Positions 44,893 to 62,225 of a stretch of DNA of 64,000 bases are shown here, one piece after another (within the stretch, counting starts at the first letter, position 1; the number at the start of each line of letters is the position of its first letter). The position numbers were made by a program, and so were the translations under genes. The notes under the pieces are model-generated. The model searched no databases and was not told the DNA's origin. It saw only the letters and a program-made list of their open reading frames with translations. Source of the stretch: Escherichia phage KBNP1711; sequence record NC_023593.1, one strand, 5' to 3'.

Positions 44893-45549
44893 TTAATTCT
44901 CCAAAGTTTTCTTCAGAGCTGCCCACGAGATTGGGTAGAGTTTAGCCATCTCTTCATCCAGAGATTGAGCAAACACTCGAACTTCGTATTGAGCGTGAGA
45001 GGAGAGTCGCTGACGACACAACTCAAACCAGCCATACAAAGAACCAGTCCACACCCACTCAGTGATCATTCCCTGAGGAAGAACAAATCGAGCTTGCTCT
45101 GGTGCAACGAATTCAATCAACTTGTCATATGCTGCTAGAGAGGCTTCATATGCATCGTTAATCAACATTAATGCTTCAGCTCGCTCTCCATCAATGAGTT
45201 GAACCCCTGAACCTGCATGGAGGTCCGAAGGTCTCGCAAAAATCTCTTTAGGGATGAAGACTTCAACTGCTCCATCTTTATACCTCCGGGACATTTCGTT
45301 CCACGAGAATCCAACCTGATGCTTGCCCAGCTGTCTCGCAATTGCGATAGGTGCTTTGCATCGGAAACTGACTTGCGGGTGCCTGAAAGGCGTGACATGC
45401 TTCTCTCTTGCGAGGAAGTTGATGAGACGTTCATCACGTTCATTTAAATCACCTTCACGGGTTACGCCAAAGGAAACTCGAGCTGCGTTTACTACGCTAC
45501 GATCACTTCCCATAGCTTCGATTAATGTTGCTTGTAATTGTTCATTCAT
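44893..45549 (-). CDS. thyX: flavin-dependent thymidylate synthase (ThyX family), atypical RHR motif
   Basis: Matches recalled Thermotoga ThyX ('AARVSF','KAPI..ARQ','S.RY','SHAQ.E'); has KHQ where RHR is expected. Confidence 0.65.
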   Translation of the reverse strand: MNEQLQATLIEAMGSDRSVVNAARVSFGVTREGDLNERDERLINFLAREKHVTPFRHPQVSFRCKAPIAIARQLGKHQVGFSWNEMSRRYKDGAVEVFIPKEIFARPSDLHAGSGVQLIDGERAEALMLINDAYEASLAAYDKLIEFVAPEQARFVLPQGMITEWVWTGSLYGWFELCRQRLSSHAQYEVRVFAQSLDEEMAKLYPISWAALKKTLEN

Positions 45550-46669: not shown

Positions 46670-47254
46670 TTAGTAAGACACGTCACCACTGGAGTGGGAC
46701 ATGTTGCTCTTGACGAAGTAACAGAACTTTCCAAGACCTTCATTAATTTCTTGAAGCATACTCTGATCAACTGGATAGGTGCACAAGTCTGAATCAAACT
46801 CGTCCATCTTCTCAATGATACACATAAGAGTCATGCACATGTCAGAAAGCATACCGTCCATGTCGAGATCAGCGTTACCTTCTCGGAACCAAGCACAACC
46901 AAGATAGCTACTAGCTGTTGCATCCACTTTAATGCAGTGATAACGCATTCGCTCTGCTACCCGATCACCAGTTTCACGAGCATAATCTTCTAGTTCATCG
47001 AACATACCGTGAACACCTTGGAAACCAGCTCCAGAGACGTTCCAGTGATAGTTCTTTGATTTGATGTGTAGAAGTTCAAGGTTAGCCTGCACACCACACA
47101 GGATGTGCTCTAGGCTGTTACCGCTAATCAATTTATTCATTCCCTCTAGACGAGAGATAGAAGAGTCAGTTGTAGAGAATGGGTTGCTAGAACCCACTCG
47201 TGTCAGTTCAGGTAAGTCGAAGACATTATTATGCATTAGGTTCATCTCCTTCAA
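46670..47254 (-). CDS. Dps/ferritin-like protein
   Basis: 'ANLELLHIKSKNYHWNVSGAGFQGVHGMFDELEDYARETGDRVAERM' resembles the Dps di-iron site helix pair. Confidence 0.45.
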   Translation of the reverse strand: MKEMNLMHNNVFDLPELTRVGSSNPFSTTDSSISRLEGMNKLISGNSLEHILCGVQANLELLHIKSKNYHWNVSGAGFQGVHGMFDELEDYARETGDRVAERMRYHCIKVDATASSYLGCAWFREGNADLDMDGMLSDMCMTLMCIIEKMDEFDSDLCTYPVDQSMLQEINEGLGKFCYFVKSNMSHSSGDVSY

Positions 47255-48267: not shown

Positions 48268-48467
48268 TATCTGTCAACCGATTCAGGGACAAACTGCATT
48301 ACACAGACCTGATTACGAGGAAGGTTTATTTCACAAGCGGCTTTTCTATCAGCAACCTTAGATGACGAGTTAGGGCCAATTTGAGCCATCATTAATCCCA
48401 TAGCTAACATGCCGAGGATTACACCAATTGCTAAAGATGCTACAGTTTCTTGTTTCATCTTGATCAC
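48267..48467 (-). CDS. small membrane protein
   Basis: One hydrophobic segment 'LAIGVILGMLAMGLMMA'. Confidence 0.3.
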   Translation of the reverse strand: MIKMKQETVASLAIGVILGMLAMGLMMAQIGPNSSSKVADRKAACEINLPRNQVCVMQFVPESVDR

Positions 48468-48997
48468 ACCCCTTTAGATGCAACTACACCTTCAGAATTA
48501 TTATAACGACCCTTCACTGCATATGAATGTTCCCCTGCATGAGAGTGCTCAAACATAACCATCTGACCAACACGCATACCAGCACGAACTCGTAAGCTAT
48601 GATGCTTGGTTACGTTATGGAATTCAAATGTCAGCTTACTGCTATTAAACCCTGCGTCTGCCCACCCAGCGTGGAGATGGTTCAAGCCACAACGAGCCAT
48701 CGAAGACCGCAGGACAAACAAACTGGAGATGTTATCTGGAAGGTTAAACTCTTCCATCGAGTGAGCTAAGAAGAATTGTCCCGGAGTAATGATAATACCG
48801 TCTTCAGGGATTTTTACTTCTTTCCACTTGAGATTTTCTTTCGCATCAATGTCAACAATCCCATCAGCCTGTTCTTCAATAAGGATAGTATCACCAATAC
48901 GGATATCCACACTAGCAGCGTTAACATACTTATGCTCCGCATCCAGAAAACCGTTATCGATAACGTCGTGTAATTCCATGCTTCCTAATAAACTCAT
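48464..48997 (-). CDS. dcd: dCTP deaminase (dCTP deaminase/dUTPase superfamily)
   Basis: 'VDIRIGD', 'LRSSMARCGL', 'HAGWADAGF' match E. coli Dcd motifs (recalled). Confidence 0.65.
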   Translation of the reverse strand: MSLLGSMELHDVIDNGFLDAEHKYVNAASVDIRIGDTILIEEQADGIVDIDAKENLKWKEVKIPEDGIIITPGQFFLAHSMEEFNLPDNISSLFVLRSSMARCGLNHLHAGWADAGFNSSKLTFEFHNVTKHHSLRVRAGMRVGQMVMFEHSHAGEHSYAVKGRYNNSEGVVASKGV

Positions 48998-49011
48998 TCT
49001 TATTCCTTATG

Positions 49012-50292
49012 TTAATCTGTGATACTGTCGCTTTCGTCAACCCAGACTGGATTATTAATCTGTCCTAAACGACGAGCTGATGTTTCGTTAATAGAGTTAA
49101 CCCCTGCTGTGCGAGGGTTTGTGTACCACGGTCGGACTATGCTACCCGACTGAATTGCTTGGTTTGCTTCTACATGCCACCTGTTTGATACCGTGTTGGC
49201 TTCAAAGTTACCACCCGCTCCACCACTGATAGGCACAGCTTGAGCTGGTTGATTTACTCGGTTAGTTCCTGCCCCAAAGGCTGCTGCAAATTCAGACACA
49301 CGTGCACTAAATGAAGAACGAGCACGCTGAGGAGGTGATATATCATTTCGTGTATCTACTGCACGAGGCATAGCCCAAGTATCATCTGTTGAGATATCAG
49401 GGGTAGGCTCTTGCTCTAGAGGTTGAAGATTAGCTGTCCATTGACTATTCAGTATACGATAGAAATCTGCACCATAACCACTTCGGATAACATCCTCTCT
49501 GACACCAAAGAAGCGACTGATATCCCCACCGATTCGGGCTAGTTTGTCATTGTATGCAGGTATGATTATTCCACCCTCTGTCACTAAATCAGAGACACGA
49601 CTTGTTGTAAGTGGTGAAGTGATCCAACAATAATAATCAGTAATGTGACCATCGTATCCGAAGAATGCAATCTCTGCATCAGGCCATTTCTTGTGGACAT
49701 ATGCCACTTCACGGTTAGAACAAACAGGGATTGCACCTGTTTCAGTCATTGCATAGAAGCCGTCAGAAGAGAACCAAAGTGAATCTAGTGCTAAGAATCC
49801 ACGACACACGCTCGGGAAAGTAGCAGCCAGCGCCCCAAGTGAGGTAGGTTCATTGAACATTAACTGAATCTTTGCACTCTGATAATTAATCTCTAGGATA
49901 TCTACAAAATTCAAAGAAGACCCAGGGGCATATTGATTATTACTTCGTCCAATATCCTGCTCAATGAGAAGAGATCTTGTTTCAACACCATGAGCCTCTG
50001 CCCACTCTTTGAAATCTTCAAGGAACAAGCGAGCCTTAGCTCGCCACATCGACCGATCAGTTACAGACTGTCTCGGCAATCCACCCTCTGTAGTGATGAG
50101 AAAGATATCAATGTCGTGAGGTTCACGCGTCTGAAAGATTGCATCCCTAACAGCACCACCTGCAATGATAGGGTACACACCATCAGGGATTAAACGGTTT
50201 GCAATCAACTCGTTAATTAACGTAAGACCAGACACAAGCTGCGGACTATCATCAATCCGACGACGAATTAGTGCATTAGGGATATTATACAT
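49012..50292 (-). CDS. nucleotidyltransferase (CCA-adding/poly(A) polymerase head-domain type)
   Basis: 'IIAGGAVRDAIF...HDIDIFL' matches the 'GGxVRD...DxD' active site. Confidence 0.5.
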   Translation of the reverse strand: MYNIPNALIRRRIDDSPQLVSGLTLINELIANRLIPDGVYPIIAGGAVRDAIFQTREPHDIDIFLITTEGGLPRQSVTDRSMWRAKARLFLEDFKEWAEAHGVETRSLLIEQDIGRSNNQYAPGSSLNFVDILEINYQSAKIQLMFNEPTSLGALAATFPSVCRGFLALDSLWFSSDGFYAMTETGAIPVCSNREVAYVHKKWPDAEIAFFGYDGHITDYYCWITSPLTTSRVSDLVTEGGIIIPAYNDKLARIGGDISRFFGVREDVIRSGYGADFYRILNSQWTANLQPLEQEPTPDISTDDTWAMPRAVDTRNDISPPQRARSSFSARVSEFAAAFGAGTNRVNQPAQAVPISGGAGGNFEANTVSNRWHVEANQAIQSGSIVRPWYTNPRTAGVNSINETSARRLGQINNPVWVDESDSITD

Positions 50293-50841
50293 TTACATTT
50301 TCCAATATAAAGATGGGGGGTCATTTGGGTCAAAGTTTGCAATATGGCAAAGATATTTATAAACCTTAACCGTTAAGTTTACGTCCTGTTCACAATAAGT
50401 AAACATGTCCTCTGTAAAGGCATCCCATGCTTCTTCCTGTTCACCGTAATCACCCTTAAGCTCTTCTAAGAACTCACCCCATTGCTTTAAGCCATGACCT
50501 CTTGGGCCATGTCTAGGGTCGCCTTTCGGATACTCAGGACTGTCACCAATACGGTCAGGTTTAAGATACCGACTCAGACATAAAGTGTCTAGGACGTTGA
50601 ATTTGTAATCAATCAAATCAGGGTACATCTTCTTCAGAGCACATAAGTCGAAGTCAATAACGTTATGACCTACAACAACATCAGCCTCTGTAAGTTTCTT
50701 GATACCCTCTTCAATCTGGTGAGGGCGAAATCCCCACCGTTCACCAGTTGATATATCGAAGATAAAGATACACCATACGTTTGTGATATTGTCGTACAGT
50801 GCATCACTCTCAATATCAAATGCGTAGACTTTCTTTACCAC
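50293..50841 (-). CDS. DnaQ-like 3'-5' exonuclease
   Basis: Exo I 'YAFDIESD', Exo II-like '[11 protein letters not shown]'. Confidence 0.55.
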
Positions 50842-52625
50842 GGGCTTTTCTCTCCATCTTGAGCAAGAAGTGATGCTGCATCCTCTCCATTTGTCAGCGA
50901 GAATGGGTTTTCTTCATCAATTTCATGATCTTCACGCTCAAGCAACCGTCCCGTCTCTCCTACATACTTCGTATAGCACACCCCTGTTTGTCCATAGTTA
51001 CGCTCTTTGAGGAGTCGTATAATGGAGAGGTTCTTAGCCAGACCATCTGCTTGTTTGTCACGTTCAAAACCGATGATACATTGACACCAACGCATAAGAG
51101 AACGAGAGCCAGTAAACTGTACCTCTCGAACCTGACCACCTTCTTCATGAGGTGCACCACCTGCCGGAGCATTGAGGTGAGATAGTACGAATGCTGTGAA
51201 GTTTAATTCTTGACACATACCAGCAAGCTCGGAAGCAATCTTACTGATTTCAGTGTTAATCTCTGAAGGTGTTAAATGAGACACCAGAGCGGTAATGTTA
51301 TCAAGGATGATAAACTTACACTGGTTTTCAACAACCCAGAAACGGATACACTGTTTAATGTCGGCCCATTCATTCTGACCAAAGTTATCATAGAGGAAGA
51401 ATTTATCTGCATATCGAAGAGCTTCGTTACGCAATGTATCTTCATCATACTCAACATCAGGTCTATGGAAAGGAATAGATGCTGACTTGCCTGCAATGTT
51501 CTTAACGGACATTCCGACCTTCTCTTCCAAGAAGAATCCGCCACCATTAAAACCATGCTCAAGGCAAAGCCAAGCAACCAGTTCATGTGCAATCAATGTT
51601 TTACCAGAGCCTACACCACCACCAATTGCTACCATTTCTCCCCAACGAATACCGTAGGTCATCTCATTAAGAGTTTTCCACGGGTATGGGATACCCCACT
51701 CTGCTTTCTTCAGAGCATCATCTAAGCAATCAAAAACAGTTACAGCACCAGCTGGAGATTCCCGCTTCGCTGAATATTTAAGAATGTTAAACAATTCCTG
51801 ACCACGACCAGAGAGGAGCATATCATTCGCATCTTTAAGCTCTTTCTCAACACCGTTGTACTGGAAAGAACCTTTAGGAATACGAGCAAACTTCACATGT
51901 GGGAACAGAGCACGCCCTTTGGTAAGAGCAATCTCACCAGCATCATCGTTGTCCATACAAAGGACAACCTCTTCAAAACCATTCAAGAACTCACGGTTGC
52001 GAGACAGAACGGAAGAAATCGACCCTGCACCGAACGGTAAAGAGACACACGCTGGTTTAATGTTTGTTGCATTTGTAAAAGCTGTAAGAACGTGGAAGCC
52101 AGACATGCAAGACAAGGGGTCTTCAAAGATGAAGAGCTTCTTATTATACACATCTCCACGTTTAGCCTGTGCCATACCAAACAAATCAGCTTCTTTCACA
52201 CTACCGATGTAATAAAACTTTTTACTATCAAGTAGTTTAACCTCGTAACCGACAATGTTTCCGTCACGTTCACGAGGAAAGAAGTAACTGTCCGGTGTCT
52301 GACCATCAGTTTGACTGAGACCAATACGACATTCAAAACGCTCTGATACAGCTTTAGGGATTAATCGACGAGTGAGTTCTCCTTGAGGTAACTCCAAGCA
52401 ATCATCCAAGACCTCTCGAAGTTCTTCAGGGGACAGCTCTTTCTTTTCATTTGGTGTAGGTGTCGTGCCTTTCTCAAAGACTTCGTAATTACCACACCGG
52501 TTACAACTACCCCACTCTTCACCGGATTCCTCATTACGGAAGAGAATCATGTGATTGTGGGTTTTATCACGACCATGAGAGATGCACTCCTTACAGCCTG
52601 TGTCTCCCAAAATGATCTTTGACAT
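50835..52625 (-). CDS. primase-helicase (T7 gp4-like)
   Basis: N-terminal Zn ribbon (CxxC...CxxC), TOPRIM 'MDNDDAG', Walker A 'GGGVGSGKT'. Confidence 0.75.
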
Positions 52626-52662
52626 GCTCTATCCTCCTTGGATTCTCCTTGAGCAAACTACC

Positions 52663-52872
52663 TTACTTATAAAAACTTCGAATCATGTCCCAGATTTCTT
52701 CCTGCTGGACCCTAAAGAAAGCTAAACGTGTCGATGTACGTTCGATAAACTCTTCACTATGCTTTTCTCTATCTAGCATACTGACAAGCTTTTCGTATTT
52801 ATTGATCTTCCATCGCATTTTTAAATAGTCTGATTCTAGTGTCCTTAACCTCTGACACTCAATCAAATCCAT
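52663..52872 (-). CDS. hypothetical small protein
   Basis: ORF track. Confidence 0.3.
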   Translation of the reverse strand: MDLIECQRLRTLESDYLKMRWKINKYEKLVSMLDREKHSEEFIERTSTRLAFFRVQQEEIWDMIRSFYK

Positions 52873-53291
52873 CAGTTATCCTCTGACAGATAAAGAGACC
52901 AGTCACCAGATTCAACCAGTTCATCTTGCTCTTCATCAATGTGATAAATCCAAGCAGTGACAGTTTCACCACTATCCAGAACCACTTCGATAGGTGTACG
53001 CTTGTAGAAAGTGTGTGGGTTGTCATTACCACGATGCCCTTCCAGCATGTCATAAGCGCCCTCAACACCATCCATATCCGTCTTAAACACTTCAACACGA
53101 ACAGGTTTACCGTTACTGCTGTGTTCCAGAGAAACACTTGGGAAGTATGAACCACCGTAGCGGTACAGGTTGTAGTTTTCTTTAGTGAAACCTTCACCAA
53201 TCGATTCAGCACCTGCACGAGCATTCACTCGGAAGTTAGCCTGACCAGTACGAAGAGAACCATAAGTTGCTACATAAATTACTTCTGACAT
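52872..53291 (-). CDS. gamma-glutamylcyclotransferase-like (AIG2/YtfP family)
   Basis: N-terminal 'YVATYGSLRTGQAN', C-terminal 'VESGDW', cf. E. coli YtfP. Confidence 0.55.
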   Translation of the reverse strand: MSEVIYVATYGSLRTGQANFRVNARAGAESIGEGFTKENYNLYRYGGSYFPSVSLEHSSNGKPVRVEVFKTDMDGVEGAYDMLEGHRGNDNPHTFYKRTPIEVVLDSGETVTAWIYHIDEEQDELVESGDWSLYLSEDN

Positions 53292-53362
53292 TTTAAATAC
53301 CTTTGTTCATTGTTTAGTTAATCCGAACTAGCCTCCTCTTTCGAAGAAGCTAGAGCAGATTG

Positions 53363-53545
53363 CTATGCTGTGAAGTTTTTGATTACACCGCAAATAACAT
53401 CTGTTTCAAACGTACCCACCAGAACATCGTCTCGGTAGAAGTTAATCGCTCTACCGTCTCGGTTAAAGTGATCTGCTTCAATGAGCATTGACTGTACCTG
53501 ACCATCTGGAGTGGAGGTTCGAAAGATGACGTTATACTGACTCAT
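53363..53545 (-). CDS. hypothetical small protein
   Basis: ORF track. Confidence 0.3.
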   Translation of the reverse strand: MSQYNVIFRTSTPDGQVQSMLIEADHFNRDGRAINFYRDDVLVGTFETDVICGVIKNFTA

Positions 53546-53784
53546 AAAGAAGTTACTCCCTTATCTTCTTGGGCGATAGAGATGATACGACTCACACACT
53601 GCATTGAGTACTCATCTCCACGCTTTAGGAACGTTACGATAGCAGAGAATTGATTACCAATCATCCGCTCATTTGTGATACCGAACTCTTTGCAGAGTTC
53701 TTTCAGTTTGCTACGAGAACCAATAATCAGAGGCTCTTTTTCTTCAGTCATTCCGCGACTAATCAAATCTTCAATAGACAACAT
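53542..53784 (-). CDS. hypothetical small protein
   Basis: ORF track. Confidence 0.3.
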   Translation of the reverse strand: MLSIEDLISRGMTEEKEPLIIGSRSKLKELCKEFGITNERMIGNQFSAIVTFLKRGDEYSMQCVSRIISIAQEDKGVTSL

Positions 53785-53807
53785 AATTCCATTCCTTGGG
53801 GGTTTAA

Positions 53808-55025
53808 TTAAAAGTTTACTACTTCACCATTAACGGTAGTTACTGATGCAAGACGACGAACACGACCAATCTGTTCACGACTAATTGGAGTGTTCCAACC
53901 AGAGCGATAGAAGTTGCGACCGCAGAAGAATACAACAACATTAGAAGCAATCCGTCCGTAGTTACGATCAGGGTGGTTGATATTCGCTAGGTAATATCCA
54001 CGGGTCAGGTTTGCATTTTCATTAATGGGACGAGCATTTGGTGCAGTTGTTTCAGCTTGCATCACTTCTTGAACTTCTTCAACAACAGGCTCAACTGTAG
54101 GAGTATCACCAGCTAAAGCAAAGTTCTCATCAGCAGCCTCTTCTGCATCATCTTCCAGCTCCACAGTTTCCTGAATAACTGGCAGAGGGTATGCTACACG
54201 ATACTCAGGGTTTTGACCACGGAGAGACTCAACATACTGCAAGAAGTTGTGCTGGTAAGTTTCCAGAGTCGTACCAGTCAGGCCCGGAGCGGTGTTAACT
54301 TCTAACACCCATGCTTCCTCGCCTTTACTGATAATGTCAACAGCACCAAAGTTAAGACCGAGTGCTTGTACTGCTTTGTGCGCTTGAATCAGAACCTGAT
54401 CATTTGGTGAATCATTAAAAGCATTTGAATAAACCCAACCAGTGTGATGATTACGAACATCTTCACGATAGTCAGGGTTATCACGATACCCATTACGACG
54501 AATCTTCTTCTGTACGTAAGTAATAACACCTTCAAAGACATGAACACGCCATTCACGACGTGGGCCAGTGATTGCTTTCGTGTACAGAGGAGCCTCTGCA
54601 ATACCTTCACGAGTAAGACGAACAGTGATACCTTCACCAGAGTGACCGTTCAGTACACCACGTTCATAAACAATACTATTTCGGTTCCAGTTCTGTGCTT
54701 CTTCACGATTAGTGGTATATTCAACAGTCTTGACTTCCGCAAGACGCATAGTATTGAAAGCTGCAACCTTGTTCGCCGCACGATTCAACGCTGCTACGTT
54801 GTTCAGGACCGTTGCACCTTCGAAGAAGGATTCTTGATAACGACGGTTTCCGTAGTTGATGATCACATCACCAGAACGAGCACGGAATCGGCTGGTTCCA
54901 TCAGACAGAAGAGCCATTGCGTTAGCATTGATTCGGTTGTCACGGAGATGTTGATTCAAGCTGGACACCAGAGCATTAACAGAATCAGAAGGGCCATAAG
55001 GGAGAACACGGATACGAGTAGTCAT
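53808..55025 (-). CDS. ATP-grasp ligase (RimK-like)
   Basis: 'GAVDIISKGEEAWVLEVNTAPGL' matches the RimK C-terminal ATP-grasp motif. Confidence 0.6.
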   Translation of the reverse strand: MTTRIRVLPYGPSDSVNALVSSLNQHLRDNRINANAMALLSDGTSRFRARSGDVIINYGNRRYQESFFEGATVLNNVAALNRAANKVAAFNTMRLAEVKTVEYTTNREEAQNWNRNSIVYERGVLNGHSGEGITVRLTREGIAEAPLYTKAITGPRREWRVHVFEGVITYVQKKIRRNGYRDNPDYREDVRNHHTGWVYSNAFNDSPNDQVLIQAHKAVQALGLNFGAVDIISKGEEAWVLEVNTAPGLTGTTLETYQHNFLQYVESLRGQNPEYRVAYPLPVIQETVELEDDAEEAADENFALAGDTPTVEPVVEEVQEVMQAETTAPNARPINENANLTRGYYLANINHPDRNYGRIASNVVVFFCGRNFYRSGWNTPISREQIGRVRRLASVTTVNGEVVNF

Positions 55026-55027
55026 TT

Positions 55028-55261
55028 TTAGATACCTTTAAGTTTAAGAATTTCGTTGCGAGTACGTTGGATACGTTCTTCAAGAGTGTGATAATCAAAG
55101 ATGCAGATCTCTTCTGCTTCATCAGAAGGTGCATCCATTAAACCCATAGCAATCGGATACACTTTTCGCTGTTCCGTTGTCATGTTCTGTAGCCGGAGTC
55201 GTTGATACTCCAGCAGGGTAATTTTCGGCTTGTTAGTTTCCTTGCTTGACATGAGGCTCAA
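55028..55261 (-). CDS. hypothetical small protein
   Basis: ORF track. Confidence 0.3.
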   Translation of the reverse strand: MSLMSSKETNKPKITLLEYQRLRLQNMTTEQRKVYPIAMGLMDAPSDEAEEICIFDYHTLEERIQRTRNEILKLKGI

Positions 55262-55466
55262 CCTTGATACCTTTCAGTTTCACATAGTCAGCCAGCACGT
55301 TGTTAATAACTGTTGGGAAAGGAATCTCAACAGGTGCATTAACTAACCCACCAATACCCTCTTGCATCCACTTCTGGATTGCACGAAGGTTATCACATCC
55401 TGTGCTTGTCATTGGAATACGGCGAGTGGTTACAACGTTATCCAACATCATCTTACGAATTTCCAT
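55233..55466 (-). CDS. hypothetical small protein
   Basis: ORF track. Confidence 0.3.
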   Translation of the reverse strand: MEIRKMMLDNVVTTRRIPMTSTGCDNLRAIQKWMQEGIGGLVNAPVEIPFPTVINNVLADYVKLKGIKVEPHVKQGN

Positions 55467-55476
55467 AATACACCTC

Positions 55477-57495
55477 TTAATTATGACCTTTACAGTGCAC
55501 TGAATCGCACACCACTTGATTGGTATTGTTTAGTGTGCAGAGTTCTGCATCACGCCACGGAATCTTTTTAAAACAGACTGCACAAAACCCCAAAGTAGAC
55601 CAGAGGGCTTTTGTGAAGGTTGCTGAACGGTTTCCATCGGAAGAGGCAACTGTTCTGGTAATTGAGACTTTTGACTCACGAAAGGTTTCCGCTACTGGAG
55701 CGGATTCCTCCTTTGGGGTAGTCACTGCAATAGCATAAATACCACCCCAACGCTTCTCAATGTAAGCACCGAATACATCTTCCAGAGTGATTTCACTCTT
55801 ACGCTTGGTTGAGGATTCCATGACAACCATGTTGTCCAGAATCTTTTGATCGACACGAAGAGCTACTTCAGGACGTCGAGCACTTGTTGTATCAACACAC
55901 TTAGTCCAAACATAACCCTCTTTCAGGGTGACTTGAGTTGCTTGCTTCTTTGCTTTATTAGCACAGATTTTACAAACATCGTCACCACGAAGTTTACTGA
56001 ACTCTTCATCAAATTCAAAGTCAGACTTCACTTCACCGCACACCGAACAAACACCGATAGGAATCTCATCCTCTTCAACGTCTTCTACTTGCTTCTGGAT
56101 AGAATCAAAACAAGCTTTATGCCAATATGCTTGGTATGCGAAGATTGCACTTGGGGCTTCTTTCCAGTCGATGTGCTTATCACAGCCACCACAATCACCA
56201 TGGGAATGGGCTTCCCAGAACTTACGAGTGATAGTCACCCCATTCTTGCTGACAAAACTATCCTCTGCATCAAAAGGGATATCATCATCGAAATCAGCTG
56301 TAGTGCTTTCCGGCTCCTTTTTCGACAAGTCAAAGAAGTGACCAGAGATCAACACCAAACGAATCATGCTATTAACTTCAGAAATACAGCCAACCGTACC
56401 ACGGTAAACCATATGCTTATTCTTAAGAGCAGCTTCGTAATCAGTTTGCAGGATGTTATGAACATCACCCTCAATATACTCTTGAGCTTTGTCATCATAA
56501 ATATAACCAACCATCTTACCGCGATCGGTATCTTTATAACAAACAAACTCGTGAGGAATAATATCAACCTGCATATCACGACGGATATCAACACCTTTGT
56601 CAGATGCGATCTTGTTTTGTTTCAAGATTGCTTCACGACGACGTACATCACCTGCGGTTACGCCGGGCTTTCTTTGCTCGTCGCTGTTCCCGTTTACGTA
56701 ACTTTTTATCCCGCTTGAGTGATTGTTGCTGTAGCTGTTCGAGTAATAACTTCCCCAACGCGTTGCTACCGTAAAAACCGGGAGTTCATGTACGACCTCC
56801 TCTACCAAAGTCATCTTGTTGTCAGAAACATCAAAGATGTACTCTGTACCGACTTTACACTCAAAGTGCTCATCGATTCGATTCTTGTGGCTCTTAGAAC
56901 GCTGAAGAATCCACATCAACATAGCTTCTTCTGAAGCACCAAACCATGAAGTTCCCAGACGGGCCAGATGGAATGGACGCTCATCGTTGCGAATGATGTG
57001 AAGACGGTTATCACTTGCATCATGCCAGATCAGAGTGAATGCACCATCCAACTTCTGAATAGTCTCTGCTGCACCAATCTTGTTAATAGAGTGGCAGATG
57101 TTCTCACTATCAACCTCAAAAACCTTACTGTCAGGCAGAAGGTCTTGATCAACTAAGGTTCCGTTATGAACCAGAGTGATGTTTCCGTGAGAGAATGGGT
57201 GAGCGTTACGTGAGTTAATAGCACCTTTCGTAGCATGTCGGCTATGACCAACAATCCATGAAGGAGGCACTGTGTAATTAGTAAGGCCAGTTGTCAGCTC
57301 GGTGTACTCTTTCTGTAACATGAAAGCATAGGAAGGTAGTGCTTCTTTGTAAGAGAACACAGATCTTTCGCTTTTACGCTGACCGAAAATACCAGTTGAG
57401 TGTTGACCACGAAATACACCAGCATAAAGAAGCTGGTTGTAAACATCTAAGTCATAACTTGAGAGGCTTCCACCTGCTAATACGATACCACAAAT
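55477..57495 (-). CDS. class-II (Ntn) glutamine amidotransferase fused to a Cys-rich C-terminal domain; probable AUU start
   Basis: Frame open upstream of track start 57360 encodes 'CGIVLAGG...FRGQHSTGI'; AGGTGG 7 nt before ATT. Confidence 0.55.
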   Translation of the reverse strand: MCGIVLAGGSLSSYDLDVYNQLLYAGVFRGQHSTGIFGQRKSERSVFSYKEALPSYAFMLQKEYTELTTGLTNYTVPPSWIVGHSRHATKGAINSRNAHPFSHGNITLVHNGTLVDQDLLPDSKVFEVDSENICHSINKIGAAETIQKLDGAFTLIWHDASDNRLHIIRNDERPFHLARLGTSWFGASEEAMLMWILQRSKSHKNRIDEHFECKVGTEYIFDVSDNKMTLVEEVVHELPVFTVATRWGSYYSNSYSNNHSSGIKSYVNGNSDEQRKPGVTAGDVRRREAILKQNKIASDKGVDIRRDMQVDIIPHEFVCYKDTDRGKMVGYIYDDKAQEYIEGDVHNILQTDYEAALKNKHMVYRGTVGCISEVNSMIRLVLISGHFFDLSKKEPESTTADFDDDIPFDAEDSFVSKNGVTITRKFWEAHSHGDCGGCDKHIDWKEAPSAIFAYQAYWHKACFDSIQKQVEDVEEDEIPIGVCSVCGEVKSDFEFDEEFSKLRGDDVCKICANKAKKQATQVTLKEGYVWTKCVDTTSARRPEVALRVDQKILDNMVVMESSTKRKSEITLEDVFGAYIEKRWGGIYAIAVTTPKEESAPVAETFRESKVSITRTVASSDGNRSATFTKALWSTLGFCAVCFKKIPWRDAELCTLNNTNQVVCDSVHCKGHN

Positions 57496-57569
57496 TTTCT
57501 AATCCACCTGAAGGGTAAACCCTTTCATCTAATTAACCTTTAATTGTGCCCCTTTCGAGGCACCCATTG

Positions 57570-58670
57570 TTACAGCAGTCGTTCTAACTGAATTTCCAAG
57601 TGGTCTGGAATATACTCAGTGACGTTGTTATCAGAGACGCCAGATTCACGCATCATGTTGAGCATGTTACGAATCTGCCCTTCTGTTGCTTCACGAGTTT
57701 CACTAATCTCTGTTTCATACAGAGCCATGATCTCGTTATGAACATCTTGAGCATTACCACGGACATATCCGAGGAAGCCATAGAAGTCAGACATATCACG
57801 AAGGGATACAACTACCGACCCACTACTATCAAGAGTTTGTAAACGAATACGCCCAACCTGACGCACAGATCGGTTACGACAGAACAGGATATCACGAGCC
57901 AGACGATAACCGCTATCAAGATCTTCGTGTCTTGGGGTGTAGTCCAGAGGTAGGTGCGGGAGCATAGGGTCAAAACGAACCCTGTTGAGCATCTCAACAA
58001 ACTCTTCATTGTCCATCTCTGCATTTTCAACTGCTAATTTCTTAAGAACCAAGAAGCGGTTTACCAGATTTAACAGCTGACCTTTCTTCCACTTAGGCTC
58101 TGAGATACGGAACTCAACAGAACCGAACTGAGCCAGAGGGAGTAGGTTGAGTGATGTGTACTTATCCCAACGGTCGACGATATGTCGGAAGAAGTTCTCA
58201 CCTTCGTAGTTAAATGCTTCAGAAGCGTTCATTACTTGAGCCTGAACCACTGCAAAAGCAGGACAGAAATTACTACGGTAACGGTGATAACCAGAGCACT
58301 TAAACATCAATGCTTCATAGAAAGTCCACCCAAGGATAACTTTCTTAACGATATTGCTATCAGCATCTCGCATATCCATATGAACGTGAGTGGAACATCG
58401 CCAAGTCCCTTCTGCTTCGGACTCCATCACTGCCTCACTCAGATTGTTGATAGCGTCAAACAGTTCTACACCATTGTAAGGGCGAGAACAGACCATTTCA
58501 CATCCGTTGCGAAGCGAGCCATCCTCTGTACATTCCCACATATCTGCTTCGATATGATCGTCACCTTCAAGCTCCAGCTCAATACCAATACCGCATTGGA
58601 ATGCGATACTCGGATGTGCTTCACTCAGACGATTACTACGGTATCCAAAAGCTTGCGCTACAGTTGTCAT
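57570..58670 (-). CDS. carboxylate-amine ligase (GCS2/YbdK-like amidoligase)
   Basis: 'GIGIELELEG', 'EDGSLRNGCEMV', 'STHVHMDM', cf. YbdK. Confidence 0.5.
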   Translation of the reverse strand: MTTVAQAFGYRSNRLSEAHPSIAFQCGIGIELELEGDDHIEADMWECTEDGSLRNGCEMVCSRPYNGVELFDAINNLSEAVMESEAEGTWRCSTHVHMDMRDADSNIVKKVILGWTFYEALMFKCSGYHRYRSNFCPAFAVVQAQVMNASEAFNYEGENFFRHIVDRWDKYTSLNLLPLAQFGSVEFRISEPKWKKGQLLNLVNRFLVLKKLAVENAEMDNEEFVEMLNRVRFDPMLPHLPLDYTPRHEDLDSGYRLARDILFCRNRSVRQVGRIRLQTLDSSGSVVVSLRDMSDFYGFLGYVRGNAQDVHNEIMALYETEISETREATEGQIRNMLNMMRESGVSDNNVTEYIPDHLEIQLERLL

Positions 58671-59281
58671 AACGACTCCACTAACTCCACAGTGTATTGG
58701 TTAAAATCACTTTCAATATGCTTGAACTTGTCAAGCAGTTGTACGGTCTGACGACCACGGCTGTCATATCCAGCACTAAGAAGCACACGACCAACATGTG
58801 CACCTTTATAATAAACAAGACCATCAGAAGGATTGATGAAGATAAAGCGAGTCAACAAGCCTTCAAAGGATGGGTTAAACAGGTTATAAACCATCTCACC
58901 AGAGATGTTACGACCTAGAGAAGTTACGCCACGGAGTTTGTTACCCATCAACCCCTTAGCTCGCTGACGAACTGGATTGATGTGAGTCCAACTTACCATG
59001 TTACGTCCGTGTTGAAGATAACCAACATCAGGGGATTCCAGAATCAGGTTAGGGTTGAAAACCCCAATCTGAACTGTTGTACGGTTAAACCCTGAGTCTG
59101 TTTTAAACCAACGCTCTGCTTCGAACATCAAAGCCATCTCTGCTTCATGAGAGAAGTCATCACGAGAGAACTCACCTTGTTGGAATACGTTCATAACAAA
59201 CAGTGGGATGTTTAAGTTCCCACGTCTTTCAGCAATCCATGTCCCACAATAGTAATGAGAGAAGTCAGTTACTAAGCTCAC
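58667..59281 (-). CDS. hypothetical protein in amide-ligase cluster
   Basis: ORF track; ATGA overlap with upstream gene. Confidence 0.4.
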   Translation of the reverse strand: MSLVTDFSHYYCGTWIAERRGNLNIPLFVMNVFQQGEFSRDDFSHEAEMALMFEAERWFKTDSGFNRTTVQIGVFNPNLILESPDVGYLQHGRNMVSWTHINPVRQRAKGLMGNKLRGVTSLGRNISGEMVYNLFNPSFEGLLTRFIFINPSDGLVYYKGAHVGRVLLSAGYDSRGRQTVQLLDKFKHIESDFNQYTVELVESL

Positions 59282-59290
59282 GATAACCCC

Positions 59291-60097
59291 TTACGCTACC
59301 TGTAAACGTTTCAAGAACACATCTGCTTCACGAACATCGTTGGTGTTGATGATCTGGTGCAGCTTTTCAATCGGAAGGCGAGAGTGGAGGCTCATCAAGA
59401 ACTCCATGTCGCTATTTTGTACAACCTTGTCAACTTGATCGTACACGAATTGACGATCTTCTTTCTTGCCAATCCAGAAGTTCGACAGAGAGCGATACTC
59501 AATGCCATAAGGTTTGTAACGGATTGCGGATGCTTTACCGTACAGCTCTTTACGTCGAGTATCACCATCCATCAGAACAGCAGGCAATGACAGGAAGTAA
59601 TCACACAGAACGCCCAGCATCATCTGAACCTTCTTATTCACATCCAGAGAGCCAGTGACACCAATGTGCACATGACCACCTGCTGTACGCAAGCCCTTGT
59701 TCTCTGAAGTTGGAGAAGCATTCTTTTGACCAGTGAATGCGTTGAAGTCTGGAGTACAACCAAACACGAAAGCGGACGGATGGAATGATTCCAATTCCTC
59801 TTTAGAGAAGATATGAGAACTTACACCCAGAGCCGCTTCCATGTCCTGTTTCTTCAGAACTTCGTTGGTAAGATCAATACCGCGCTGAACGTTGTCATTA
59901 AACGCTTCAAAACCTTGTTGTGGGTTGATATCAAACTCAGCCAGCACGTTGTCTTCTTGGAGACGTACATCCTTAGCCAGATCGATTTTATTTTCTTTAG
60001 AACAACCCAGCTTGCCAGCAACAGAGGTGATGATGCCAGAAGAAGTACGAACAAACATCTCTGGGTCCGTTCCAATTAAAAAGATGCGCTTAGTCAT
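59291..60097 (-). CDS. carboxylate-amine ligase-like (second GCS2-like paralogue)
   Basis: 'LIGTDPEMFV' and 'GGHVHIG'; GGTGGA RBS before ATG 60097 (track ORF to 60178). Confidence 0.45.
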   Translation of the reverse strand: MTKRIFLIGTDPEMFVRTSSGIITSVAGKLGCSKENKIDLAKDVRLQEDNVLAEFDINPQQGFEAFNDNVQRGIDLTNEVLKKQDMEAALGVSSHIFSKEELESFHPSAFVFGCTPDFNAFTGQKNASPTSENKGLRTAGGHVHIGVTGSLDVNKKVQMMLGVLCDYFLSLPAVLMDGDTRRKELYGKASAIRYKPYGIEYRSLSNFWIGKKEDRQFVYDQVDKVVQNSDMEFLMSLHSRLPIEKLHQIINTNDVREADVFLKRLQVA

Positions 60098-61019
60098 TAT
60101 AGTATTCCACCAATTCTTTAAAGAGGGATATGATTGTTTCTTTGTTGCTCTCCATATTAGAGCCGCAACGACTTTCAATACGTTCTAAGAAACCATTTAC
60201 ATTGATGTTAGAAATCTTTTCATCAAGAGATGAACGTTTCCAACCAGTGCTCATAGACCAAACTCTCAAAAAGGTACTCATTGAAGAGTACATCTCTGCG
60301 TTTTGGTTTCGACGACGAGCAATACGACGAAGAGCTGCACGGTCATGGTTTCGGATATACCCTGATGTGTTATCACCTTCTCCGACTTTGTTTTGCAACC
60401 AAACGTCGGTTGAAAACTCACCTGTATTGCAAATAATCGGAAGAAATGCAAATGCTGGTAAATCATGCGGTAAATAGATAGATGTTGATTCGTCAGTGGA
60501 GTCATTAACTCTATCAAAGTTAAGCTCCCCAAAGAAGTCCTTACTTACCCCAGCAAGAGCTAGAGCTAATCCAACACGACGACGGAATAGCCATTCTTCT
60601 CTATCATCAACTCCCTCTGAAAGAAAATCCATAGATTCATACTCGCAATCGAGATAGCTACGGAAAGTCATTAGTCCTGTAAAAACTTTATCTGCTGCGT
60701 GTTCACGAAGATCAACCTCTACACTATTAGCAGAAGTTATTGTGAACATATCTTTGTACATAGAACAGGAGTTCAGTACATCAGCAGTATCCACCAAATG
60801 AGACTCAGTCTCATCCATGTTGCAGTGGGGCCAGTAGTTAATCTTACCCATGTGCGCTGTGAAGTTATCCAAGCTGGTTCGAGTACTCAGGCCGTTAATG
60901 TCACGAGTGCTAAAGTTGTGCATAGAGTTGTGGATACCGAAACAAACTCGGCTCGCAAAACTCTGCTCACCCAACATATCACTAACTTCTACAGGAGCTA
61001 ATGTTGTGGAAATTGCCAT
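60090..61019 (-). CDS. hypothetical protein in amide-ligase cluster
   Basis: ORF track. Confidence 0.4.
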   Translation of the reverse strand: MAISTTLAPVEVSDMLGEQSFASRVCFGIHNSMHNFSTRDINGLSTRTSLDNFTAHMGKINYWPHCNMDETESHLVDTADVLNSCSMYKDMFTITSANSVEVDLREHAADKVFTGLMTFRSYLDCEYESMDFLSEGVDDREEWLFRRRVGLALALAGVSKDFFGELNFDRVNDSTDESTSIYLPHDLPAFAFLPIICNTGEFSTDVWLQNKVGEGDNTSGYIRNHDRAALRRIARRRNQNAEMYSSMSTFLRVWSMSTGWKRSSLDEKISNINVNGFLERIESRCGSNMESNKETIISLFKELVEYYND

Positions 61020-61031
61020 TGTCTTTAACCT

Positions 61032-62225
61032 TTAATTTCCTAAGAAAAGTTTCGTGAGAATTGAATCCCACTCCGTACTAGGCAGCACATCAAAGCTGCT
61101 ATTATTTGACAAATTCGACTGTTGAAAGTGGCGAATCAGTGTGTAAGTGTTAACACGGTCATTACCAAATCGAGTATACAACAACTCGTTTCGAGTCTTG
61201 TCTGATAGGGAAATAGCTTTGGCAAAAGCTACAATCAGCATAGGCTCTTTGAGGGCACGATCTTGAAGGGCTTCTGGTTGAATAATAGGTAAGAACATCG
61301 AGTTGTTTACATACAGCTCATGCTCTTCGTGTCCGGGAACGTCATACCAAATACTCTGGTAGTCTTCATCACGAAAATGTCCTTCACCAGCCATATATGA
61401 CGGTTGACGCCACGCGGTCTGGCGAGGTTCTGCCATATTAGCTCCGATACCCACTGTGTACAGTGTTACAGGGAACAGGCAGTTGTCATATTCGTTACCA
61501 GTAAAGGCAACTCGTACTTCACCAAACAGGTTCTCTTTTGCGTTAATCAATCGAGAATAGGCAAGAGCTTGTAACGGAGACCAATTATCCATGTAGAGCT
61601 TATCAAGGAAAGTCCACACGTTTGCTTGTTCGTCTTCTTGATAGAACAGACGATTCACCATAAGGTAGAACAGGCAACGATCAGCAGGAACTGGTTCAGA
61701 TACATCTTCTGTTACTACACCCATAAAACCTTTTTCATGCCAAACAAGACATGAAGGACGATCTTTATCCATGAAAGCTTCAAGCGCTTCCATAACTGAC
61801 TTGACAGTTACATCAGGACGTTCACGATATTCAGCCCAAAGCTCAACTGCATTCTTAGGCTTTTCATCCCCTACATCAGCGTGATAGAAAGCATATTGGA
61901 AGGAGATGATGTTGTTGCTCCCATCCTTTCCACGCATAGGGATGTGGGTTCCAGAGTTCCAGATAATACGAATATCTTCCATTGACATATTTCTGCTCAG
62001 GACTTCATCTCTGCCTGAGCTTTGCATCAAGCTATAGCTGCTATCCCAAACATGGACATACTGCGTCCAGCCTTCATTGGCTTCGTAGGTAATGGGGTCG
62101 TAATAGTCGTCATCTTCATCACAATCATCACCACCATGGTAGTTGTCGTGCTGAAGAAATCCATAGCAAGGAGGCCAGACTGTTAATACGTTGTCGTGCT
62201 TATCCTGCAATGTTACTGGAAACAT
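61032..62225 (-). CDS. hypothetical protein in amide-ligase cluster
   Basis: ORF track. Confidence 0.4.
   Translation of the reverse strand: MFPVTLQDKHDNVLTVWPPCYGFLQHDNYHGGDDCDEDDDYYDPITYEANEGWTQYVHVWDSSYSLMQSSGRDEVLSRNMSMEDIRIIWNSGTHIPMRGKDGSNNIISFQYAFYHADVGDEKPKNAVELWAEYRERPDVTVKSVMEALEAFMDKDRPSCLVWHEKGFMGVVTEDVSEPVPADRCLFYLMVNRLFYQEDEQANVWTFLDKLYMDNWSPLQALAYSRLINAKENLFGEVRVAFTGNEYDNCLFPVTLYTVGIGANMAEPRQTAWRQPSYMAGEGHFRDEDYQSIWYDVPGHEEHELYVNNSMFLPIIQPEALQDRALKEPMLIVAFAKAISLSDKTRNELLYTRFGNDRVNTYTLIRHFQQSNLSNNSSFDVLPSTEWDSILTKLFLGN

Follow-up and report, generated by a model that had tools for sequence, protein, structure and literature searches.

Modular architecture of the Cys-rich extension on the class-II amidotransferase of a phiEco32-like phage

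The amidotransferase gene and its head domain

We examined a gene of Escherichia phage KBNP1711 (NC_023593.1) that encodes a glutamine amidotransferase with a long Cys-rich C-terminal extension. The window, by which we mean the whole stretch of 64,000 nucleotides that was analysed, comes from a phiEco32-like prolate podophage (Gordonclarkvirinae). The coding sequence occupies positions 55477-57495 on the minus strand, where an ATT start gives a protein of 672 amino acids (aa) followed by a stop codon. The original prediction, made from the DNA letters, had drawn attention to positions 55477-56800, which correspond to aa ~232-672, and had described them as a Cys-rich second region of about 440 aa, with four CxxC pairs, in a protein of about 670 aa. 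Our analysis indicates that this architecture is real, conserved and previously undescribed, and that it is carried by a known but functionally unsolved phage enzyme.

The length of the protein depends on an unusual start codon. The minus-strand frame that stops at 55477 is open as far as a TAG at 57499-57501 and, with the ATT start, therefore yields the 672-aa product, in line with the length first proposed. The ATT initiation codon (57493-57495, minus strand) stands directly 5' of the TGT codon of the catalytic Cys2 (57490-57492) and is preceded at a distance of 7 nucleotides by a Shine-Dalgarno sequence, AGGTGGA (57503-57509, minus strand); the complete arrangement, AGGTGGA-N7-ATT-TGT-GGT-ATC, reads as Met-Cys2-Gly-Ile-Val. 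This MCGIV start is kept in an alignment of 15 homologues (identity 49-72% over the full length and 36-64% over the extension), to which the statements of invariance below refer. Automatic calling of open reading frames (ORFs) begins the gene at a GTG at 57360 and returns only 627 aa, but this GTG is not the true start because the catalytic Cys would be lost. The same span is annotated from exactly the same ATT in phage KarlSchell_Bas89, and a metagenomic homologue of 49% identity has the same AGGTGGA-N7-ATT-TGY arrangement (L004, 9995-10018), while another homologue uses TTG (L005, 10001-10012). A rare ATT before the Cys codon leads gene callers either to truncate the enzyme at its N-terminus, as in the RefSeq annotation of phage EP335 and a 627-aa database cluster (P0001), or to prepend spurious residues, as in the clusters P0016 (MDYKIC...), P0009, P0027, P0042 and P0043. 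Our analysis corrects these truncated N-termini and also the widespread database label 'L-glutamine-D-fructose-6-phosphate aminotransferase' (GlmS), which is a mis-annotation of this gene. At the DNA level the gene is 97.7% identical to that of Escherichia phage EP335 (Nieuwekanaalvirus) and 97.2% identical to that of KarlSchell_Bas89, and about 90 Kuravirus-type records match it at about 73%.

Judged by its residues and profile matches, the first part of the protein (aa 2-238; 56782-57492, minus strand) is a class-II (Ntn) glutamine amidotransferase domain, with the catalytic Cys right after the initiator codon and Gln-binding residues of the GlmS type. It scores 53.2 bits against Pfam GATase_6 (cut-off 27) and 28.7 bits against GATase_7 (cut-off 25). 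The nearest class-II relative is the glutaminase domain of E. coli GlmS (1xff), and a profile match to it aligns R86, N111-G112 and D129, the key residues of the head besides Cys2, with GlmS R73, N98-G99 and D123; all are invariant among the homologues. The head alone, used as a single sequence, found no match in the PDB. These residues would fit equally well the hydrolysis of glutamine, as a supply of ammonia, or the hydrolysis of a gamma-glutamyl-X compound. The second activity would suit the gene module described below, because glutamine-synthetase-like ligases and a gamma-glutamylamine cyclotransferase appear, from what is known of their families, to be encoded together there. What follows the head is unlike the fused regions of other class-II amidotransferases: the SIS domains of GlmS are not found in the C-terminal 440 aa (Pfam, E<=10), there is no phosphoribosyltransferase, PP-loop or flavin mononucleotide domain, and the region is made up of binding-type modules.

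Anatomy and conservation of the extension

The four CxxC motifs (CGGC at 435, CSVC at 483, CKIC at 508 and CAVC at 638) are the only ones in the entire protein, and the C-terminal 440 aa contain 15 Cys residues. Shuffled versions of this region held a mean of 0.47 CxxC motifs and reached at least the observed four with P = 6e-4. The invariant positions are C435, C438, H459, C462, C483, C486, C508, C511, C638, C641, C653, C663 and C668, and homologues of the extension match it across 99-100% of its length at 36-96% identity. Conservation of the Cys residues in orthologues, which had been named beforehand as decisive for the original prediction, was therefore observed, with the ligands invariant down to 36% identity. 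These ligands form three four-ligand sites, CxxC+HxxC, CxxC+CxxC and CxxC+Cx4C, each a conserved set of two knuckles, with four ligands to a small module in both of the AlphaFold models described below; ligand geometry was read from the sequence pattern together with secondary structure, and module boundaries were taken from the models. We infer that each site holds one structural Zn2+. The earlier proposal of zinc-finger or zinc-ribbon modules is borne out in the paired-knuckle arrangement of the ligands, but the sites number three and correspond neither to two modules nor to one metal cluster. Regular-expression searches of the extension found no PP-loop (SGGxDS or a relaxed pattern), Walker A, Rossmann or radical-SAM motif, which agrees with the statement that this is not a QueC- or AsnB-type enzyme, and no CxxCxxC or CxxxCxxC cluster motif.

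Two AlphaFold models, one of the full length (predicted local distance difference test, pLDDT, 73) and one of aa 284-672 (pLDDT 79), agree in their layouts. Structure prediction had been suggested as a means of recognising the fold of the second region; the models resolve its modules (an OB barrel, fingers, a ribbon and an alpha/beta domain) and include no synthase-like fold. Following the minus strand from the head, a disordered Ser/Tyr/Asn-rich linker (aa 239-283; 56647-56781; pLDDT below 50 in the full-length model) is succeeded by a basic helix (aa 284-303) and an OB-fold barrel (aa 304-390; helix and barrel together 56326-56646). The barrel has five strands in the classic OB topology b1-b2-b3-helix-b4-b5, with the helix between strands 3 and 4, and fold searches returned OB folds only; the assignment rests on this topology and on moderate scores. 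In the models themselves the leading helix covers aa 284-299 and the five-stranded barrel aa 309-389. An acidic disordered linker (aa 391-414; 56254-56325; pLDDT below 50, computed net charge -7) leads to finger A (aa 415-472; 56080-56253), with the pattern T-R-K-F-W...C435-x2-C438...H459-x2-C462, which is predicted from the models to be a treble-clef-like CCHC site of knuckle/hairpin/helix layout. Next come a C4 zinc ribbon with a helix (aa 480-526; 55918-56058; C483-x2-C486-x21-C508-x2-C511), a small alpha/beta domain (aa 527-593; 55717-55917; pLDDT 82-90), a disordered stretch (aa 594-612) and, at the end of the protein, finger A' (aa 613-672; 55480-55659; T-K-A-L-W...C638-x2-C641...C663-x4-C668), in which C653 is clade-specific. 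The assignment of both fingers and the ribbon draws on the invariant ligands as well as on the models. The alpha/beta domain is particular to the Kuravirus-like clade, and distant members have extra CxxC ribbons there instead. The description of the extension as Cys-rich holds in so far as the Cys residues are conserved, but about half of it (the helix and OB domain, the acidic linker and the alpha/beta domain) is not Cys-rich. Computed charge gives the OB domain a net value of -4 (isoelectric point 5.3) within a protein that is acidic as a whole; the leading helix, the alpha/beta domain and the last finger (+3 for finger A') are the basic parts of the extension, and the only ones.

Fingers A and A' are homologous (hhalign probability 86%, E 4.8e-6; shuffle test z 5.7) and have the motif T-[KR]-x2-W-x(4-6)-C-x2-C-x3-I-x-W-x-[DE]-A in common; on this comparison finger A' is a diverged duplicate of finger A. 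By hhalign, the fingers are unrelated to the middle ribbon and the OB domain is unrelated to the alpha/beta domain. A Pfam search at E<=10 gave no match for the whole 440 aa, and three sub-segments produced only sub-threshold LIM matches and miscellaneous zinc-finger noise; a PDB sequence search with the extension gave no match. With the motif searches, these results accord with the expectation that the C-terminal region would have no clear match to a synthetase domain. The LIM matches to the finger (E 0.009-0.06) took in only positions 1-27 of the 58 in the profile and, at 14-17 bits, stayed below its cut-off of 22.9. In the PDB the finger profile gave only non-significant matches, to LIM and to fingers F1 and F2 of PARP-1 (E 0.03), the latter covering only the stretch up to and including the first knuckle. 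Finger A, read as C-x2-C-x3-I...W-H-x2-C-[FL], does resemble the CCHC finger of the PARP type and the first of the two LIM fingers. It differs from LIM, a domain of about 55 aa with contiguous CCHC and CCCC/D fingers, in scoring 16.7 bits, with one of the two LIM fingers matched, and from the PARP type in having x20 between the knuckles in place of x28-30. A finger module (T-x3-W...CxxC-x3-I-x-W...CxxC) is thereby defined by the extension, and no significant Pfam or PDB match to it was found. A search of an index of 5.8 billion proteins with a 52-column profile of the finger gave four candidates, none of which scored, and this probably reflects a limitation of the word index and not absence of the module.

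The acidic linker, ADFDDDIPFDAED, contains the motif DFDDDIPF (aa 401-408; 56272-56295, minus strand), which matches the C-terminal octapeptide of E. coli SSB at 8/8 positions. The final nine residues of that protein, MDFDDDIPF, are its acidic tip (PMC7913777), and this tip recruits SSB-interacting proteins (PMC5872125). When the extension profile was compared with E. coli SSB by hhalign, exactly these eight tail residues were aligned and nothing else. D404, D405, P407 and F408 do not vary among the homologues; F402 is nearly invariant, as is D409, which directly follows the motif. A DDIPF-like motif was found by regular expression in 27 of 44 family sequences, some of the matches being degenerate or elsewhere in the protein; in the closer relatives it stands just before the first finger. 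The DDDIPF-like motif is unique in the six frames of the window, with one looser acidic-Pro pattern match besides. The succession of OB fold, acidic disordered linker and DFDDDIPF tip is that of bacterial SSB and, by analogy, of T7 gp2.5. Unlike in SSB, the OB domain is acidic and without sequence similarity to the SSB OB, falling outside the SSB family PF00436, and the short linker leads to a tip that is internal, with ~260 further residues after it. No canonical SSB (PF00436) was seen among the replication-region ORFs scanned, which are part of the ORFs of the window, and an SSB-like segment in the amidotransferase is all the more curious for it. One SSB candidate, the protein labelled 'DNA binding protein' in Bas89 (window 46670-47254, minus strand), was rejected because it is ferritin/Dps-like (Pfam Ferritin, E 5e-7).

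When 1.84 billion representative proteins were searched with a profile of aa 284-672, only 27 cluster representatives were retrieved, which are 490-810 aa long except for one 52-aa fragment. Each of the 25 whose sequences were obtained and examined shows a recognisable class-II amidotransferase region ahead of the extension (some are N-terminally truncated), followed by the linker, the OB region, the acidic linker and then 2-9 CxxC pairs, of which 0-3 form finger A-type modules. Across the 44 family sequences the finger module occurs one to three times per protein in all but two, and the finger A' module stands at the end of nearly every member. The cultured carriers are prolate (C3) podophages, namely Kuravirus and its relatives, Cronobacter GAP52, Salmonella 7-11 and Proteus Privateer, together with Aeromonas and Vibrio Grimontviridae. 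A search of BFVD confirmed these carriers and added phage proteins of ~360-450 aa that match over ~100 residues, one of them labelled Gn_AT_II. Relatives of the head on its own occur in 327 phage records, 121 of which are Pseudomonas phage records, several of them LUZ24-like. A homologous finger is found at the end of the enzyme of E. coli phage PJNS034 (E 3.7e-6); homology of the C-terminal CxxC...CxxC of the LUZ24-like phage UFV-P2 was also considered but was not demonstrable (E 0.011).

The surrounding gene module

The amidotransferase gene belongs to a block of ~10 genes (window 50835-62225, minus strand) that is syntenic in Gordonclarkvirinae, Grimontviridae (7-11, Vp_R1) and the LUZ24-like Pseudomonas phage UFV-P2. 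All genes of the block are on the minus strand. At its head are two conserved proteins of 309 aa (phrog_13102) and 397 aa (phrog_13063), which together occupy 60090-62225, followed by a phiEco32-type COOH-NH2 ligase (PF14395; 59291-60178), a conserved ~204-aa protein (PHROG match, phrog_4877; 58667-59281) and an Amidoligase_2 protein (PF12224, phrog_7469; 57570-58670), a glutamine-synthetase-like ligase that lies immediately upstream of the amidotransferase, is its neighbour in all relatives examined and is a candidate partner in trans. Downstream of the amidotransferase are, directly adjacent, a DUF7195 protein (PF23825, E 1.1e-17; 55233-55466), found at the same position in the relatives L004-L006, and then a small gene, a RimK-like ATP-grasp ligase (53808-55025), a GGACT/AIG2-like gamma-glutamyl(amine) cyclotransferase (PF06094, E 3e-17; 52872-53291) and a T7 gp4-like primase-helicase (50835-52625), which is the downstream border of the module in every relative examined. 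This order is common to two metagenomic relatives, Salmonella 7-11, Vibrio Vp_R1 and Pseudomonas UFV-P2, where the synteny is interrupted at a few points by the insertion of a homing endonuclease or small gene and where DUF7195 and the two proteins at the head of the module were confirmed only in the closer relatives.

The five enzyme types of the phiEco32-type amidoligase module (COOH-NH2_lig, Amidoligase_2, GAT-II, ATP-grasp and AIG2/GGACT) all fall within 52872-60178 and have the same order in the relatives L004-L009, and the gene studied here is the orthologue of the phiEco32 'glutamine amidotransferase'. This module has been known since 2009 and is present in hundreds of sequenced podophages. 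The treatment of it by Iyer, Abhiman, Burroughs and Aravind (2009, Mol Biosyst) is said to discuss, among other roles, the synthesis of peptides or metabolites. As that study is cited in a later paper (PMC10580990), a function in cell-wall modification or superinfection exclusion was proposed. In phage SU10, mass spectrometry detected the amidotransferase, the ATP-grasp enzyme and the cyclotransferase as early products (PMC4281155). We found no functional or experimental study of the amidotransferase or its module in the literature, and no description of an arm made of an OB fold, an SSB tip and zinc fingers in the literature retrieved. For the two proteins at the head of the module and the ~204-aa protein there was no PDB relative and no informative Pfam match, and only PHROGs of unknown function; in all, four proteins of the module are without detectable relatives of known function. 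PADLOC gave no match for eight module proteins.

Some features of the neighbouring genes deserve separate mention. For the COOH-NH2 ligase, the longest possible ORF opens with a TTG, but similarity to its PHROG is seen from aa 28 onwards (MTKRIFLIGTDPE...). Translation therefore probably begins at an internal ATG near 60097, in which case the gene would no longer overlap the 309-aa gene upstream. The RimK-like ATP-grasp protein contains a linker at aa ~290-320, acidic and of low complexity, and a separate C-terminal domain of 84 aa with a PHROG of its own (phrog_20552), and may be another modular 'arm' in the same module. Near the replication genes (48464-50292 and 44893-45549, minus strand) lie genes for a dCTP deaminase (PF22769), a 426-aa 'nucleotidyltransferase' with no Pfam match and ThyX, which the authors of the BASEL study speculate underlie DNA modification (PMC11990801).

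Possible roles of the extension

Our preferred reading, in which we place even confidence, is that the extension has no catalytic role of its own: it would be a docking arm, stabilised by zinc, that brings the glutaminase into position on partner proteins, and not an ammonia-acceptor domain. The extension looks like a chain of small binding modules, and the enzyme therefore probably works with partners encoded by its neighbours. Binding modules with structural zinc are favoured because the ligands fall into three separate mini-domains between flexible linkers, and also because one finger is duplicated and the number of modules varies between relatives while the head is constant; the lack of a nucleotide-binding or catalytic signature in the extension argues in the same direction. 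Together these points speak against both a synthase domain and one shared metal cluster. The arm would tether the amidotransferase head to partner proteins, and the head would hydrolyse glutamine or a gamma-glutamyl-X compound. The first candidate partners would be Amidoligase_2, the COOH-NH2 ligase and the ATP-grasp enzyme, all three of which are strictly co-conserved. These neighbouring ATP-dependent ligases are better candidates for the acceptor chemistry than the extension, and might supply it in trans in a manner parallel to MurT/GatD, a two-protein amidation system in which MurT carries a Cys4 zinc ribbon. The two systems are alike in having a glutaminase gene beside the gene of an ATP-dependent ligase and a Cys4 structural zinc (putative in the phage enzyme), whereas GatD is a class-I enzyme with a catalytic triad and the phage enzyme has a class-II head with the zinc modules on the glutaminase chain. 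The SSB-like piece, comprising the OB domain and the acidic tip, may also bring the enzyme to readers of the SSB tail, either in the T7-like replisome of the phage or among the SSB-interacting proteins of the host.

Several observations weigh against a docking arm. The SSB-tip motif is internal, at aa 401-408 of 672, and known pockets for the SSB C-terminus hold the side chain of the terminal Phe together with its free alpha-carboxylate (PMC3159472). The OB domain has a conserved cluster of K327, E342 and H346. Finally, the arrangement of the domains relative to each other is unreliable in the models (predicted template modelling score, pTM, 0.32-0.40), so that the structure may yet allow a path for ammonia to a site in cis.

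An acceptor site in cis is what the original prediction had envisaged, in the form of a Cys-rich synthase domain with new chemistry and possibly a catalytic metal or cluster. In GlmS, PurF, AsnB and GltS, which are characterised class-II amidotransferases, the acceptor function resides in the fused C-terminal domain, and this precedent, the conserved polar residues of the OB domain and the fact that no known domain explains the region all speak for such a site. We consider it improbable nonetheless, since three separate four-ligand mini-modules between disordered linkers are not one cluster, no ATP or nucleotide motif for activation of an acceptor is present, the Cys modules range from 1 to >5 between relatives with a constant head, as is typical of binding repeats, and three ATP-dependent ligases are encoded alongside. 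The claim that the second region defines the ammonia acceptor found no support, the recognisable pieces being modules of a binding type that lack a catalytic signature. It is more improbable again that the Cys sites bind iron, as rubredoxin-like Fe(Cys)4 or Fe-S centres, and serve to transfer electrons or to sense redox state. In its CxxC...CxxC spacing the ribbon would fit a rubredoxin-type site, but one site uses His (CCHC), neither of the cluster motifs searched for is present, the module encodes no redox enzyme, and the Cys modules resemble treble-clef or ribbon fingers.

The SSB-like features could instead mean that the enzyme is directed to DNA, with the OB domain and the fingers binding single-stranded DNA, nicks or replication forks while, in the course of replication, the amidotransferase and the ligases build or trim a modification derived from an amino acid, either on phage DNA or on a nucleotide precursor. 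Such a role would explain why Gordonclarkvirinae resist restriction-modification systems, a resistance that the BASEL study describes as remarkable and for which no modification pathway is known (PMC11990801). The OB domain matches mostly OB folds that bind nucleic acids (SSB, RPA, POT1, S1, ligase OB and LEF-3), the best PDB profile matches of the finger, though non-significant, are the DNA-nick-sensing fingers of PARP-1, the extension contains an SSB-tail motif, finger A' and the leading helix are basic, and the module always adjoins the primase-helicase and replication genes. However, the acidity of the OB domain and of the protein as a whole argues against binding of single-stranded DNA, the OB has no similarity in sequence to that of SSB, the PARP and LIM matches are below any threshold, no base-modifying enzyme type (glycosylase/TGT-like, kinase or transferase) was recognised in the module, and no modified base is reported for these phages in the literature found. 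We therefore regard a DNA-directed enzyme as unlikely, if worth keeping in view, and are more doubtful still about the wider proposal that the amidoligase/amidotransferase/ATP-grasp/cyclotransferase module modifies phage DNA or its precursors in a pathway coupled to replication, with the arm recruiting the glutaminase to the replisome or to single-stranded DNA. Alternatively, the acidic OB domain and the DDDIPF-D tip may mimic host SSB tails and titrate the host proteins that bind them (e.g. ExoI, RecQ, PriA, UDG and chi), with the amidotransferase activity secondary. Exact and conserved identity of the motif to the tip of host SSB would suit such a decoy, as would expression of the gene as an early product, and the Asp that follows the Phe could supply the carboxylate that normally comes from the chain terminus. 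There is little likelihood that this is the main role: the internal position is unfavourable for the canonical pockets, the motif is degenerate or absent in many distant members in which the rest of the architecture is intact, and the catalytic residues of the head are invariant, from which it follows that an enzymatic function is under selection.

With a docking arm as the preferred explanation, the question shifts from what the second domain makes to what the arm binds. Its binding target is approachable by pull-downs, point mutants and peptide competition (ADFDDDIPFDAED vs PSNEPPMDFDDDIPF), and the BASEL isolate Bas89, which infects K-12 and is 97% identical, is a usable system. The exact copy of the SSB tip and the fixed place of the module beside the primase-helicase point to a link with replication, and interest would rise sharply if the module acts on DNA or at the replisome. 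If replication-coupled modification proved true, it would supply the explanation still lacking for the broad resistance of Gordonclarkvirinae to restriction and would be a new, amide-forming class of DNA hypermodification chemistry common to LUZ24-like and 7-11-like phages.

A few minor observations concern the locus itself. A 290-aa ORF that runs antisense to the extension (55846-56718, plus strand) probably arises as a mere shadow of the conserved frame on the minus strand. In Bas89 (L002/L003), HNH homing-endonuclease genes that the window lacks stand between the amidotransferase and DUF7195 genes (at the place of window 55466-55477), inside the COOH-NH2 ligase gene (a joined coding sequence in two pieces, intron-like) and before the primase-helicase gene. 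The predicted fold of the leader RNA 5' of the ATT was no better than that of shuffled sequences (z -1.4) and the count of promoters did not differ from that in shuffles; terminator-like sites numbered 7, with 2.0 expected.

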